A stretch of DNA of 64,000 nucleotides from an uncultured Gammaproteobacteria bacterium (GTDB taxonomy: Bacteria > Patescibacteriota > Microgenomatia > UBA10105 > UBA927). Shown piece after piece: positions 47,128-51,753 of the stretch. The notes below the pieces were generated by a model. It was given only the letters and a program-made list of their open reading frames with translations, did no database searches and was not told where the DNA came from. The stretch's first letter is position 1. Each line of letters starts with the position of its first letter. A program made the position numbers and the translations under genes. The stretch lies in assembly GCA_964349125.1 (NCBI GenBank), contig CAYGFH010000001.1, positions 708,801 to 772,800 of the forward strand, read 5' to 3'.

Positions 47128-47202
47128 TGGTGCCAGCGGCAGGAATCGGACCTGCTACCCATGCCTTATGAAGACACTGCTCTACCAATGAGCTACGCTG
47201 GC
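47128..47202 (-). tRNA. tRNA with CAT anticodon (elongator Met or Ile2/lysidine type; not initiator-like)
   Basis: Minus-strand fold GCCAGCG-TA-GCTC/ATTGGTA/GAGC-A-GTGTC/TTCATAA/GGCAT-GGGTA-GCAGG/TCCGATT/CCTGC-CGCTGGC-A-CCA. Stems score 7/7, 4/4 and 5/5, and the anticodon stem has 2 G-U pairs. CCA is encoded. Position 55 is C rather than U. Confidence 0.8.
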
Positions 47203-47252: not shown

Positions 47253-47274
47253 AGCCATGGTTAGAATCAGAATC

Positions 47275-47343
47275 GCGGGGTAGTGTAGAGTTGCACAGAA
47301 GGCTCATAATCTTCTAGACCGCGGCGCGACTCCCGGCCCCGCA
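47275..47343 (+). ncRNA. tRNA-like small RNA/degenerate tRNA with CAT anticodon loop (CTCATAA), non-canonical T-arm
   Basis: Acceptor-like helix GCGGGGT/GCCCCGC and anticodon-like hairpin AGAAGG-CTCATAA-TCTTCT. The 3' region GACCGCGGCGCGACTCCCGGCCCCGC resembles a tRNA T-arm/acceptor but does not pair canonically. Flanked by a promoter and an intrinsic terminator. Confidence 0.3.
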
Positions 47344-47355
47344 ACAAGCGAAAAA

Positions 47356-47396: not shown

Positions 47397-47430
47397 TTGA
47401 CATTGTACTACTATACTAGTACAATAGTAC
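47397..47430 (+). promoter_or_regulatory. trpR-like gene promoter (TTGACA-17-TACAAT) overlapped by an 18-bp near-perfect palindrome GTACTACTATACTAGTAC plus a tandem TAGTAC repeat; candidate Trp-repressor operator
   Basis: The palindrome (47405-47422) matches the E. coli trp operator core GTACTAGTTAACTAGTAC at 15/18 positions. A second TAGTAC lies 8 bp downstream. The -10 lies only about 8 nt before the ATG, implying a near-leaderless mRNA. Confidence 0.5.
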
Positions 47431-47433
47431 GAT

Positions 47434-47685
47434 ATGAATCCAGAGTGGCTAGACGAGGTATCAGCAGTATTGGTTAGGATATATGATAAAGCAGAAATGA
47501 CTGAATTTTTAAGAGGCCTGTTAACGGAAGGTGAACTGGAGGAGATAACCAGACGCGTGCAAATAGTGAAAAAATTAAAATCAGGAATATCTCAGCATAC
47601 AATTGCACGTGAGCTTGGTGTCGGTGTGGCAACAGTGACCCGGGGATCAAAAGAGATACAAAAAGGAAGGTTCAGACAAGTATAG
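47434..47685 (+). CDS. TrpR-like (YerC/YecD family) DNA-binding protein
   Basis: 83 aa. SGISQHTIARELGVGVATVTRGSKEIQKG is the Trp-repressor-family HTH. Confidence 0.75.
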   Translation: MNPEWLDEVSAVLVRIYDKAEMTEFLRGLLTEGELEEITRRVQIVKKLKSGISQHTIARELGVGVATVTRGSKEIQKGRFRQV

Positions 47686-47813
47686 TAGCGTGATTATTAA
47701 ATGCATTCGTATGAGTACATATAGCAACGTGGTACAAACTTGGTGGCAGAACTCTCAACAACTGGAGAGTGCTGTGCTGTTGGATTAACACGTATACCGT
47801 ACCGATTGCATAC

Positions 47814-47837
47814 ACCTCCAGAAATGGAGGTTTTTTT
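47814..47837 (+). terminator. intrinsic terminator/possible attenuator hairpin (ACCUCCA-gaaa-UGGAGGU + U7) between the trpR-like gene and trpB2
   Basis: Read directly. Lies 129 nt after the trpR-like stop and 94 nt before the trpB2 start. Confidence 0.55.
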
Positions 47838-47930
47838 GTTGTGTTAGTTAGCAAGCCGATTCAGAGAGGCGAGTGTACTAACCAACAATCCCACAATGCG
47901 GGATGTGGAAACATTTATGAAAGGAATACT

Positions 47931-49235
47931 ATGAACACAAAACAGTCAACACAGGTCTCAGACATGCCAAAGGCATATTTGAATATCGCCTACTATCTCA
48001 ATCGATATTTGGGCGAACTGCCCCCGCCTCCGGTTGATCCGACGGGTACACCAATTGGCCCAGACGCGCTTGCGCCGTTATTTGCGATGGAGTTAATCAA
48101 GCAGGAGGTTTCTCTGGAAAAAGATATTCCGATACCAGAACCAGTACTTGAGGCATACAGACAGTATAGGATGACCCCTCTTATACGAGTGAGAAGATTG
48201 GAACGGTATCTTGACACACCAGCCCATATCTATGTGAAGTATGAGGGAGTGTCACCTGTGGGAAGTCACAAATTTAATACTGCACTACCACAGGCATATT
48301 ACAACAAGATGGAAGGAGTAAAAGGGCTTGCTACCGAAACCGGAGCAGGTCAGTGGGGGAGCGCACTCTCTTTGGCATGCCGCATGATGGATTTGCCCTG
48401 TCAGGTGTTTATGGTCAAAAGTTCCTTTGATCAGAAACCATACAGAAAAACGATAATGGAACTATACGGAGGCTCTGTTGTGGCAAGCCCCTCGACACTG
48501 ACAGAAGCAGGTAGGGGATTTTTGGAATCGGAGGCCAACAGAACGGGTAGTCTGGGGATGGCAATATCCGAAGCTATCGAATTTGCCGTCAAGAACGGGT
48601 ATCACTATGCCCTCGGTAGCGTCTTGAATCATGTCTTGCTGCATCAAACAATCATTGGATTGGAAGCAAAAACGCAGATGGAAAAACAAGATACCTACCC
48701 GGATATCGTCATCGGTTGTTGTGGGGGAGGGAGTAATCTCGCAGGTCTTAGCTTTCCATTTCTGGCCGACAAGCTTTCCGGTAAGACAAAACACCTGCGT
48801 GTTATTGCTGTAGAGCCCATAGCGTGTCCTTCATTGACTCGTGGTGAATACCGCTATGACAGTGGGGATACGGCCGGCATGACTCCCAGAATGATGATGT
48901 ATACGATGGGTAGTGATTTTGTGCCGAACGCCATACACGCGGGAGGGCTGCGGTATCACGGAGACGCACCCCTTATTAGCTTTATGTACCATAAAAAACT
49001 CATTGAGGCAGTTTCATATGGGCAATTGGATGTATTTGAATCCGCCGCATTGTTTGCCAGATGCGAAGGGATCATACCTGCTCCGGAATCCGCACATGCG
49101 ATACAACATGCGATTGTCGAAGCCATTCGTGCAAAAGAAGAGGGAAAGAAGAAAGTAATACTCGTCAATCTCTCTGGCCACGGCCTGTTGGATCTGGGAG
49201 CGTATGACGAGTATTTGAGGGGAAGCATGGCATAA
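47931..49235 (+). CDS. trpB: tryptophan synthase beta chain, stand-alone TrpB2 type
   Basis: The PLP-Lys region YEGVSPVGSHKFNTALPQAYY, GCCGGGSNLAG, and a length of about 434 aa with an N-terminal extension are typical of TrpB2. The start is at ATG(47931), 5 nt after a GAAAGGA SD. The ORF track begins at an upstream in-frame Met. Confidence 0.9.
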   Translation: MNTKQSTQVSDMPKAYLNIAYYLNRYLGELPPPPVDPTGTPIGPDALAPLFAMELIKQEVSLEKDIPIPEPVLEAYRQYRMTPLIRVRRLERYLDTPAHIYVKYEGVSPVGSHKFNTALPQAYYNKMEGVKGLATETGAGQWGSALSLACRMMDLPCQVFMVKSSFDQKPYRKTIMELYGGSVVASPSTLTEAGRGFLESEANRTGSLGMAISEAIEFAVKNGYHYALGSVLNHVLLHQTIIGLEAKTQMEKQDTYPDIVIGCCGGGSNLAGLSFPFLADKLSGKTKHLRVIAVEPIACPSLTRGEYRYDSGDTAGMTPRMMMYTMGSDFVPNAIHAGGLRYHGDAPLISFMYHKKLIEAVSYGQLDVFESAALFARCEGIIPAPESAHAIQHAIVEAIRAKEEGKKKVILVNLSGHGLLDLGAYDEYLRGSMA

Positions 49236-49890: not shown

Positions 49891-51753
49891 ATGAATCTAA
49901 AAGATACGATTGAAAAAATTTTGACTGAAAAGAACGTTGAATACCGGTTTATTCCGCTTCCTGCGGAATTACCCGCAGATGTCCCATCCCACGCTGCGTT
50001 TCACGGTATTTCGCTTGCGAATGCAATGACAACCATGCTCTATCGGACAGAAAAAGGCATTATCGCCGCAGTGAAACGGGCGGATACTCAGGTTGATCAA
50101 GAAGCGTTAAAGGCGATTGCGGGTGTGTCGACCCTGACATTTGCATCAAAAGAAGACCTGAAAGCAATAGGGACTGAGGTTGGGCTGGTACCATTTCTTG
50201 GACTGAACATCCCATTTTACATCGATGACAACGTGATGGGTGTAGGTAAAATTTACGGAACAAGTGGGGATGCATTGATGGGTATGTCTATGAATGCGAC
50301 AGATCTCCCGCTGGTAAACGCAGGCAAAGTTTCGAACTTTGCGCGACTAGAACAGCTTGCGAGCGTTCCGATGGGAAAGCGTTTTTTATCTGGCATAACT
50401 CCCAGCGGTGACGGATCACTTCACATAGGGAATTACCTGGGCGCAGTGAAACAGTTTATTGAGCTATCAAAACAGAATGAAACATTCCTGATGGTAGCCG
50501 ATCTCCACGGGCTAACGACCATACAGGACAAAAAACACCTGACTCGGAACATAGAGACACTAGTGCTTGAAGAGTTATCCCTGCTTCTTGGATTTTTGGG
50601 CGAGGAGAAATTTAATTCCATTACGTTCTTCAGACAATCTGATGTGACCATGCATACCGAGTTACAGTCGATACTAAACAATGTAACGCCCCTTGGTTTA
50701 CTGAAACGTGCGCATGCGTATAAAGATAAACTCGCGAAAGATGTGATGGAAGACGATGTGAACTTAGGTCTATTTAATTATCCGATCCTCATGGCGTCTG
50801 ACATTTTGTTGTATAAACCTGATCTTGTCCCTGTAGGAAAAGATCAGAAACAACATATTGAAATTACCAGAGATGTGGCGGACCGGTTTAATCGGATTTA
50901 TAAGAAAAATGTGTTGAAATTGCCAGACCCGTTTATTCCCGAAGCTGTCTCAGTTGTATTAGGAACTGACGGAAAGCGAAAAATGAGTAAGTCCCTGGGT
51001 AATCTGATCAGCATATTTGACGAGGAATCAGTCATAAAGAAACAGGTATACGGTGCCTATACTGATCCGACCCGCGTGCACGCTACGGATAAGGGTCATA
51101 TAGAAGGAAACATGGTGTTTTCCTATTTACACTATTTCGGGGAAACCAGCCGTGTTGAAGAGCTCAAAGTTCAGTACAAAGAGGGAGCCGTGTCAGATGT
51201 CGCAGTAAAAGAGTATCTTTTTGAATGTTTGAAGCGAACGTTTGCTCCAGCAAGGGAAGCTTACGTTCAGCTAAAGGCAAATCCAAAACGAGTGAAAGCT
51301 ATTTTGAAAATCGGGCAGGAAAAGGCGCTTTCAGTCGCAACGCAAACCCTGAAGGAGGTTCGTGATGCTATAGGTATCACGACGTCATATTCATTCTTTG
51401 AGTACCCGAAAGTGAGTGGAGGCGACACGGTATCCATCGATGACTTCGCGAAAATTCGGTTAACCGTTGGTCATGTTGTCAGCGCAACGCATAAGGAGGG
51501 GAGTGACAAGCTGATCCGTTTGGTTGTCGATGTCGGAGAGCCGGAAAAACGGATTATATTTACCGGGGTACGAACATTCGGGTATACGCATGAAGATTTT
51601 TCGGGTAAGCAGTTTTTCTTTATCACCAATCTGGCCCCGCGAAAAATGCTTGATGAGTATTCGGAGGGCATGATACTCGCAGTAGATGGAGCAGACGGTA
51701 GGCCACAATTTATTTCTGCTGACGGAATGCCGGTGGGCTCCCAAATTCGATAA
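49891..51753 (+). CDS. trpS: tryptophan--tRNA ligase with N-terminal YbaK/ProX-like deacylase domain and C-terminal Trbp111/EMAP-like tRNA-binding domain
   Basis: Catalytic core RFLSGITPSGDGSLHIGNYLGAV (TrpRS HIGH region), VPVGKDQKQHIEITRDVADRFN and RKMSKSLGN (KMSKS). N-terminal 150 aa: AMTTMLYRTEKGIIAAV...IGTEVGLVPFLG (YbaK GxxxGxxPxG-type). C-terminal about 110 aa: DFAKIRLTVGHVVSATHKEGSDKLIRLVVDVGE...GMILAV (Myf/Trbp111 OB fold). Start at ATG(49891), 5 nt after AAGGAG. The ORF track starts at 49852. Confidence 0.9.
   Translation: MNLKDTIEKILTEKNVEYRFIPLPAELPADVPSHAAFHGISLANAMTTMLYRTEKGIIAAVKRADTQVDQEALKAIAGVSTLTFASKEDLKAIGTEVGLVPFLGLNIPFYIDDNVMGVGKIYGTSGDALMGMSMNATDLPLVNAGKVSNFARLEQLASVPMGKRFLSGITPSGDGSLHIGNYLGAVKQFIELSKQNETFLMVADLHGLTTIQDKKHLTRNIETLVLEELSLLLGFLGEEKFNSITFFRQSDVTMHTELQSILNNVTPLGLLKRAHAYKDKLAKDVMEDDVNLGLFNYPILMASDILLYKPDLVPVGKDQKQHIEITRDVADRFNRIYKKNVLKLPDPFIPEAVSVVLGTDGKRKMSKSLGNLISIFDEESVIKKQVYGAYTDPTRVHATDKGHIEGNMVFSYLHYFGETSRVEELKVQYKEGAVSDVAVKEYLFECLKRTFAPAREAYVQLKANPKRVKAILKIGQEKALSVATQTLKEVRDAIGITTSYSFFEYPKVSGGDTVSIDDFAKIRLTVGHVVSATHKEGSDKLIRLVVDVGEPEKRIIFTGVRTFGYTHEDFSGKQFFFITNLAPRKMLDEYSEGMILAVDGADGRPQFISADGMPVGSQIR

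Follow-up and report, generated by a model that had tools for sequence, protein, structure and literature searches.

The window (the whole stretch of DNA analysed, 64,000 nucleotides) carries a gene for an 83-aa TrpR-like protein whose promoter is overlaid by an array of palindromes, which raises the question of whether this array is the operator of a tryptophan repressor and what such a repressor would control in a bacterium of the candidate phyla radiation (CPR). Bacteria of this radiation cannot be grown alone, and their gene regulation is, to our knowledge, almost unexplored; our search of the literature turned up no Trp repressor from Patescibacteria. We consider it very likely that the palindromic array is a TrpR-type operator, which would place a leaderless, trpR-led operon under tryptophan-dependent autorepression, a pairing of repressor and site that rests on their association and on analogy with Escherichia coli.

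Direct reading places TTGACA and TACAAT on either side of a 17-nt spacer (47403-47419), with the ATG (47434-47436) following the -10 hexamer after a gap of 8 nt. This promoter (47397-47425) is the top sigma-70-type match between 46600 and 50000, with agreement at 11 of 12 positions. The first-pass annotation had described an 18-bp palindrome spanning the spacer and -10 of this promoter, and direct reading confirms it: GTACTACTATACTAGTAC (site A in Table 1) has eight of nine symmetric pairs. The claimed 15/18 match to the classical TrpR operator core is likewise correct when measured against the idealised GTACTAGTTAACTAGTAC, and the natural E. coli trpO, GAACTAGTTAACTAGTAC, whose sequence was verified, is identical at 14 of 18 positions. 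In addition, the slightly longer TGTACTACTATACTAGTACA (47404-47423) agrees with the published TrpR consensus TGTAcTnGTnnACnAgTACA (PMC9413887), which is gamma-proteobacterial, at 15 of its 16 specified positions. A second site, ATACTAGTACAATAGTAC, lies 8 bp downstream of the first, and the array as a whole (47404-47431) has three CTAG-type centres 8 bp apart (CTAC at 47408, CTAG at 47416, ATAG at 47424) that make up two overlapping GNACT-N8-AGTNC sites. Dyad-symmetric GNACT half-sites 8 bp apart, the arrangement by which an operator of this kind is recognised, overlap the promoter over its spacer and -10 element. The tetramer CTAG is the most depleted of 12 4-bp palindromes counted over the whole window, occurring 76 times where base composition predicts 236 (about three-fold depletion) and a second-order Markov expectation is 93, yet it is clustered at the array.

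Table 1. Features of the locus in the window and of related loci (L followed by a number denotes a related locus; positions without it are those of the window).
Feature	Position	Strand	Basis or remark
-35 hexamer TTGACA	47397-47402	+	TTGAC 35-38 nt 5' of start codon in 58/81 loci
Putative operator site A, GTACT-N8-AGTAC palindrome (8/9 pairs), spacer and first half of -10	47405-47422	.	Fits TrpR half-site rule GNACT-N8 (PMC9413887)
Putative operator site B, ATACT-N8-AGTAC, 8 bp from site A	47413-47430	.	Covers -10, stops 1-3 nt before predicted start site; E. coli trpO dyad register
-10 hexamer TACAAT, within putative operator	47420-47425	+	Promoter match; relatives TATAAT (25), TATACT (23), TACAAT (8)
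Predicted transcription start (leaderless or 2-nt leader)	47432-47434	+	Predicted from spacing
trpR-like gene, 83 aa	47434-47685	+	Pfam PF01371; 39% identity and TM 0.70-0.72 to E. coli TrpR; AF2 pLDDT 95.8
Leader ORF MSTYSNVVQTWWQNSQQLESAVLLD, tandem Trp codons TGG TGG at 47741-47746	47711-47788	+	Read directly; W(W)Q leaders in relatives
Hairpin 1:2, 5' arm opening at first TGG	47741-47779	+	Minimum-free-energy fold
Alternative antiterminator, segments 2:3, sequestering terminator 5' arm	47762-47821	+	-23.6 kcal/mol, z = -4.79, 0/200 shuffles fold as well
Intrinsic terminator ACCTCCA-GAAA-TGGAGGT (47814-47831) and T7	47814-47838	+	Terminator call and fold
trpB2, stand-alone TrpB-like enzyme, presumed target of control region	47931-49235	+	NCBIfam NF009057, 659 bits
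trpS, fusion of YbaK-like editing domain, TrpRS and tRNA-binding domain	49891-51753	+	Domain matches; conserved downstream partner in relatives
C-terminal single-Trp extension, attenuator hairpins directly 3'	L007, L010, L014, L027, L031, L056; L037, L053, L055, L063, L070; 3' end of trpR-like ORF		
T-box-like leaders (AAGGTGGyACCG)	L018:3508-3717, L024:1695-1862; also L021, L029, L051, L009		
AGGGG-N3-GTT-TGG, just downstream of trpR-like gene	L016:4330-4360; L006, L009, L019, L033, L034, L040, L049, L054		
AGGGG-N3-GTT-TGG, further loci	L057, L064, L065, L071, L072, L074, L076, L077		

To place the array among relatives, one genome per GTDB species was scanned, which gave 80 loci with proteins 51-76% identical to the query, or 81 loci with the window. 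These belong to Microgenomates and other Patescibacteria, and the nearest homologues are named Woesebacteria or Microgenomates (CPR/Patescibacteria). Upstream of the gene the loci are unalignable apart from one block, made up of TTGACA, 2-3 nt, ATACTAgtATACTAGTATAaTAGTAT, 2-5 nt and ATG. Comparing the palindrome across orthologous upstream regions, the check that the first-pass annotation had suggested, found it conserved: the array stands between TTGACA and the leaderless ATG in 79 of the 81 orthologous loci, the other two being cut by contig ends, and the ATG lies 6-8 nt 3' of the -10 where the array is conserved. Conservation across about 80 species also bears out two predictions made from the window alone, namely tandem TrpR-like sites at 8-bp spacing and a candidate TrpR-type operator inside the gene's own promoter, with autoregulation as the probable outcome. 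Judged from these sequences, the operator genuinely belongs to a familiar class of switch, because its layout recurs in about 80 related species.

A position matrix of the loci resolves three 8-bp units, each a CTAG-centred palindrome (consensus ATACTAgtATACTAGTATAaTAGTAT), with information content that stays high outside the -35 and -10 hexamers. The anchoring regular expression imposed matrix positions 0-9, so that their invariance is partly by construction; the flanking units were free, and together with the matrix scan they constitute independent evidence. When a 26-bp weight matrix was run over both strands of 632 kb, 299 of the 300 hits above 8 bits fell within 90 nt upstream of a trpR-like start, with scores of 17.9-40.7 bits in 79 of the 81 loci, and the sole hit elsewhere scored 9 bits. 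An exact-pattern scan of metagenome contigs with TACTAGTATAMTAGTA gave at least 120 matches, from which no extra regulon members were definable; among the matches listed, 10 adjoined a trpR-like ORF, and the majority proved to be unrelated palindromes or repeats. Such metagenome matches are informative solely with a -35 in register, and among the core 16-mer matches listed that have one, 9-10 of 16 interpretable cases encode TrpR-family proteins, divergent ones included. Some metagenome matches (L148:600-650, L160:8060-8110, L084:905-960) place the perfect palindrome TACTAGTATACTAGTA in unrelated surroundings, namely in a tandem (TACTAGTA)n array or in the middle of longer inverted repeats.

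The protein encoded behind the array was initially assigned to the YerC/YecD family. It matches Pfam PF01371 (Trp_repressor) over residues 6-78 with 60.5 bits against a cut-off of 27. Its best-scoring model is NCBIfam TrpR (TIGR01321), at 50.6 bits and below the equivalog cut-off of 67.25, and yecD_yerC (TIGR02531) reaches 30.4 bits, below its cut-off of 42.2; each of the 33 family members is matched by both profiles, the best E-value being 1e-17 for TrpR and 4.3e-13 for yecD_yerC. The AlphaFold model (pLDDT 95.8) has five helices in the all-helical TrpR fold. Its top PDB matches, 1TRR and 1TRO, are both E. coli TrpR, 1TRR being the tandem-binding complex, and identity is 39% to these versus 19-28% to HisR-like structures. 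In the phmmer alignment to E. coli TrpR, ELGVGVATVTRGSKEIQ stands opposite ELGAGIATITRGSNSLK, and the recognition helix, ATVTRGS, follows the TrpR pattern ATxTRGS.

Residue by residue, the E. coli TrpR positions that contact DNA (R69, I79, A80, T81, T83 and R84; PMC9413887) correspond to H55, V65, A66, T67, T69 and R70, of which four are identical, one is conservative and one replaces R69 with His. In the Trp pocket, the equivalents of T44, R54 and R84 (T31, R41 and R70) are invariant in the family and those of I57, V58, T81 and G85 are retained; L41 is replaced by Gly and S88 by Glu, so the effector or the affinity could differ from that of E. coli TrpR. In E. coli TrpR, R69, a His in the window protein, is the only residue known to make a direct base contact. 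By these sequence and structural comparisons the protein is TrpR-type and not YerC/HisR-type, because model, structure and recognition helix all lie closest to TrpR and the site TGTACTACTATACTAGTACA fits the TrpR motif. The initial YerC/YecD assignment is accordingly at odds with the profile scores, the structural identities and the ATVTRGS helix, and an identity as YerC/YecD, which is HisR, was rejected on the sub-threshold profile, an operator of another type and the neighbouring trp genes and trpS. The accompanying statement that operators of YerC/YecD proteins are essentially uncharacterised does not hold either: Bacillus subtilis YerC is HisR, the histidine repressor, which binds a 20-bp palindrome, cacTTTAn6TAAAgtg, unlike the window site, and is frequently autoregulated (PMC9413887, 2022). 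HisR thus shares Pfam PF01371, a palindromic operator and autoregulation with the window system, and differs in its histidine effector, its his-gene targets, Y/T/S at positions 69/79/83 of its recognition helix and the retention of just 2/9 Trp-pocket residues (PMC9413887).

Other explanations of the array have to be set against this evidence. Short palindromes are common in AT-rich intergenic DNA, and with two mismatches GTACTAN6TAGTAC is found four times in the window against 1.6 expected; with no or one mismatch, however, it occurs on either strand of the 64 kb solely as the two overlapping sites, and the array is not due to chance because the same position is kept in 79 of the 81 loci, so that the probability of a chance palindrome is negligible. 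Nor is the conserved sequence likely to be a strong promoter only, built of spacer or discriminator elements or leaderless-initiation signals and serving no repressor, a reading to which we give very little weight. TTGACA-17-TAtAaT is near consensus, the -10 lies inside the repeat, and the promoter alone accounts for part of the information content (TTGACA, TAtAaT), but the three dyad-symmetric 8-bp units run through the spacer and past the -10, and nowhere else in 632 kb, with its hundreds of genes and promoters, does the matrix score above 9 bits. Moreover, the -10 reads TATAAT in 25 loci and TATACT in 23, the latter making the palindrome complete at the expense of the -10 consensus, which argues against a promoter-only origin; the split has the look of a compromise in which fit to the promoter is traded against fit to the operator.

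A real operator might instead answer to another regulator or to another effector, such as histidine (HisR/YerC), indole or another indole derivative, which we regard as improbable. HisR, in the same Pfam family, does have a different effector (PMC9413887), both NCBIfam cut-offs are missed by the window protein, and its L41-to-Gly, S88-to-Glu and R69-to-His replacements depart from E. coli TrpR. Against this, the neighbours of the trpR-like gene are trp genes and trpS and never his genes, and the adjoining leaders sense Trp codons or are T-box-like. Similarly, the equivalents of T44, R54, I57, V58, T81, R84 and G85 are all kept, whereas HisR keeps 2/9 of the Trp-contact residues, and the site fits the TrpR motif and not the Firmicute HisR motif.

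With a TrpR-type operator as the preferred reading, a tandem pair of repressor dimers would occupy the spacer and -10, ending 1-3 nt before the predicted start, and would exclude RNA polymerase from the near-consensus sigma-70-type promoter; this binding would probably depend on L-tryptophan. From the promoter spacing we infer transcription to start at 47432-47434, so the mRNA would begin at the AUG or 1-2 nt before it and would therefore be leaderless. A leaderless mRNA had been suggested by the first-pass annotation from a -10 ending about 8 nt before the ATG, and the proposal gains support from the conservation of this spacing across about 80 species: of the 66 loci measured, 32 have 7 nt between -10 and start codon, 10 have 8 nt and 6 have 6 nt, and an SD-like tetramer precedes the start in just 5 of the 81 loci. 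The annotated start codon is real, because the N-terminus of the protein aligns to TrpR helix A and is modelled at high confidence.

The trpR-like gene would be the first cistron of a Trp-acquisition operon, followed by a ribosome-mediated attenuator (WW leader peptide; 1:2, 2:3 and 3:4 hairpins), by trpB2, converting indole to Trp, and probably by trpS. [quoted passage not shown] The weight-matrix scan found no second operator within 4 kb on either side of any locus (64 kb for the window), so any repressor control of downstream genes must run via co-transcription. An earlier suggestion that a GTACTA half-site at 47875-47880, upstream of trpB2, is meaningful did not survive: the hexamer exists, but as a trpB2 operator it was rejected and is put down to chance, because it occurs at chance frequency in the window (24 times, 21 expected), has no weight-matrix match and is not conserved.

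In the window the genes run in the order trpR, trpB2, a 108-aa ORF and the trpS fusion, with a terminator about 100 nt before trpB2 and with trpS 650 nt beyond trpB2 behind the other ORF. Relatives have, on one strand, the trpR-like gene, a variable cassette (trpB2, trpB, trpE/G/D or unknown genes) and trpS, often then ftsH, and in most loci trpB/trpB2, trpE and related genes and trpS are downstream on the strand of the trpR-like gene. From this arrangement, trpR, leader and trpB2 probably form an operon, which probably takes in trpS also. In the window trpS, a YbaK/ProX-type editing domain lies at the N-terminus and an EMAP/CsaA-type tRNA-binding domain at the C-terminus, a fusion that is partly or wholly common to several relatives. 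Besides DIT1_PvcA-like and AstE/AspA-like proteins, the cassettes encode conserved proteins of about 300-570 aa without a Pfam match, often next to an Asp/Glu-racemase-like gene (L033:4320-5447, L034:4327-5202, L054:4310-5932, L021:607-1885 and similar); these proteins may be Trp-acquisition enzymes not described before.

The gap between trpR and trpB2 holds a putative trpL-like attenuator (47711-47838) that the first-pass annotation had missed. Its leader ORF begins 25 nt past the trpR stop codon and lacks an SD, and the folds predicted for the gap follow the classical 1:2, 2:3 and 3:4 attenuator logic of trpL; equivalent terminators with compensatory stem changes are present in most relatives. 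Searched with Rfam, the gap matched no family, Trp_leader included, at the gathering threshold or at E<=5. The window attenuator resembles E. coli trpL in its short ORF, which carries tandem Trp codons, in the mutual complementarity of its four segments and in the U-run of its terminator. It differs in that the leader is translated after (coupled to) the repressor ORF or is fused to it, in that most relatives have only one Trp codon, set in a conserved W-Q-N-L context, and in that the next gene's SD often forms segment 4, and there is no sequence or Rfam similarity between the two.

Across the 81 loci, a Trp-codon or tRNA-sensing leader directly follows the trpR-like ORF, or is fused to it, in 69. 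The most frequent type is a separate W(W)Q-type leader ORF (35/81), which often starts at the trpR stop codon (TAAnATG, or with an 8-11 nt overlap) and has behind it four mutually complementary CCTCC/GGAGG segments, the last frequently the SD of the next gene. In 12 of the 81 loci the W motif is fused to the TrpR C-terminus, for example as ...KSWQNLSSLRG-stop, ...EKGWRPPKSGG-stop or ..SSNWR-stop, and in such loci the repressor ORF seemingly also serves as leader peptide. T-box-like leaders, beginning at the trpR stop codon, are found in 5 of the 81 loci; with Rfam T-box scores of 41.7 and 39.6 bits, far below the 93 bits of the gathering cut-off, these are possibly CPR T-boxes of a divergent form. 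A frameshift-type leader is present in 17 loci, and a terminator alone or nothing recognisable in the remaining 12. Because these leader types follow the trpR-like gene across the 81 loci, the operon read from the repressor promoter appears to place the repressor first and to add a second check, based on the ribosome or on tRNA. With a leaderless start throughout the family and ribosome-sensing leaders next after the repressor gene, these loci could be a compact model for coupled control of transcription and translation.

The frameshift-type leader has the form M...(E/D)GQGLVW(L)-stop with the core AGGGG-NNN-GTT-TGG, and is absent from the window. Searched on both strands of about 572 kb, AGGGG-N3-GTT-TGG occurs 19 times, 17 of them just past a trpR-like gene. 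It has the geometry of the +1 frameshift site of prfB (AGGGGG-3 nt-CTT-TGA; PMC12421855), except that the A site holds UGG where prfB has UGA. In 16 of the 17 loci a +1-frame ORF of 100-541 codons opens exactly at TTT without a start codon, in 12 of 17 a +1-frame stop codon stands directly before this ORF, and its first Met lies 12-232 codons downstream. The products of these ORFs are TrpE, TrpD, racemase-like, DIT1_PvcA-like or unknown proteins, and Pfam domains start ahead of the first Met, with the TrpD N-terminal domain at residues 6-64 (first Met 27) and a racemase domain from residue 10 (first Met 12).

A slowly decoded ('hungry') UGG at this site could provoke a +1 shift when Trp-tRNA is scarce, so that TrpE, TrpD and other enzymes lacking start codons of their own would be made only under Trp-tRNA scarcity; starvation-driven +1 frameshifting at a Trp codon would explain the start-less pattern of the +1-frame ORFs. 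According to the comprehensive recoding review of 2016, no example of natural starvation-driven regulatory frameshifting is known (PMC5009743), and if true the leader may be a new kind of sensor; the frameshift leaders of the relatives merit separate study. We give about even chances to a broader proposal in which the operator is the entry to a modular, multi-layer Trp sensor widespread in Microgenomates/CPR, consisting of a leaderless, self-repressed trpR whose translating ribosome feeds an adjoining or fused Trp-codon sensor, this sensor being a prfB-like +1 frameshift site in about a fifth of lineages (17/81).

The resemblance to E. coli extends to the register of the promoter. The E. coli trp promoter-operator-trpL sequence used for comparison is present at 100% identity in E. 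coli genomes, and when aligned from TTGACA the E. coli and CPR promoters are identical at 14 of 19 positions (17-35), sharing ACTAGT at the end of the spacer, a -10 within the dyad and AGTACG after it, from which it follows that the operator register is common to both. As with the E. coli TrpR operators (trpEDCBA, aroH and trpR promoters), the CPR system combines the TrpR fold, 39% identity and an ATxTRGS helix with CTAG-centred GNACT half-sites 8 bp apart, where tandem 8-bp phasing is possible (PDB 1TRR), an operator over the -10 in the same register from TTGACA, a putatively autoregulated repressor gene and a WW attenuator downstream. It differs in that the repressor gene, leaderless, stands between operator and attenuator, in that the 8-bp units lie one unit upstream (centres at +12, +20 and +28 from the -35, against +20, +28 and +36 in E. 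coli), in the R69-to-His, L41-to-Gly and S88-to-Glu replacements, and in the predicted targets, which are salvage genes (trpB2) and trpS where E. coli regulates the full pathway. These sequences suggest that TrpR-operator recognition, down to the promoter register, is common to Proteobacteria and CPR. The locus also offers a defined candidate repressor-operator pair that is testable with the purified 83-aa protein and a 40-bp duplex, and the promoter should function in E. coli because it is of near-consensus sigma-70 type.

By analogy of layout, the closest known system is Chlamydia trpRBA. In Chlamydia trachomatis, trpR comes first under the TrpR-controlled P_trpR, followed by an intergenic regulatory region and trpB for indole salvage (PMC7755916, PMC6504234); the order of trpR, regulatory intergenic region and trpB on one strand is also that of the window and its relatives. 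In layout, both systems combine a leading trpR, a regulatory gap and trpB in a reduced-genome, host-dependent bacterium. An internal promoter and a YtgR operator lie within the Chlamydia intergenic region, and the TrpL annotated there is of atypical form and has yet to be validated. The window gap differs in being a compact, classical-looking attenuator with WW, and the window system further in having no trpA, a predicted leaderless mRNA and a linked trpS. A reduced-genome symbiont may thus control its indole salvage gene trpB2, and perhaps also trpS, in much the way known from Chlamydia.

Upstream of the promoter, the plus strand of the window encodes at 47274-47344 a tRNA with a CAT anticodon, an initiator-like C1:A72 mismatch and an unusual T-arm, which Rfam detects at 36.5 bits under permissive filters alone and which ARAGORN and a default Rfam scan miss. 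This tRNA is divergent from the tRNA-Met at 47128-47202 on the minus strand, and a similar pair is present in one of the related loci (L003).
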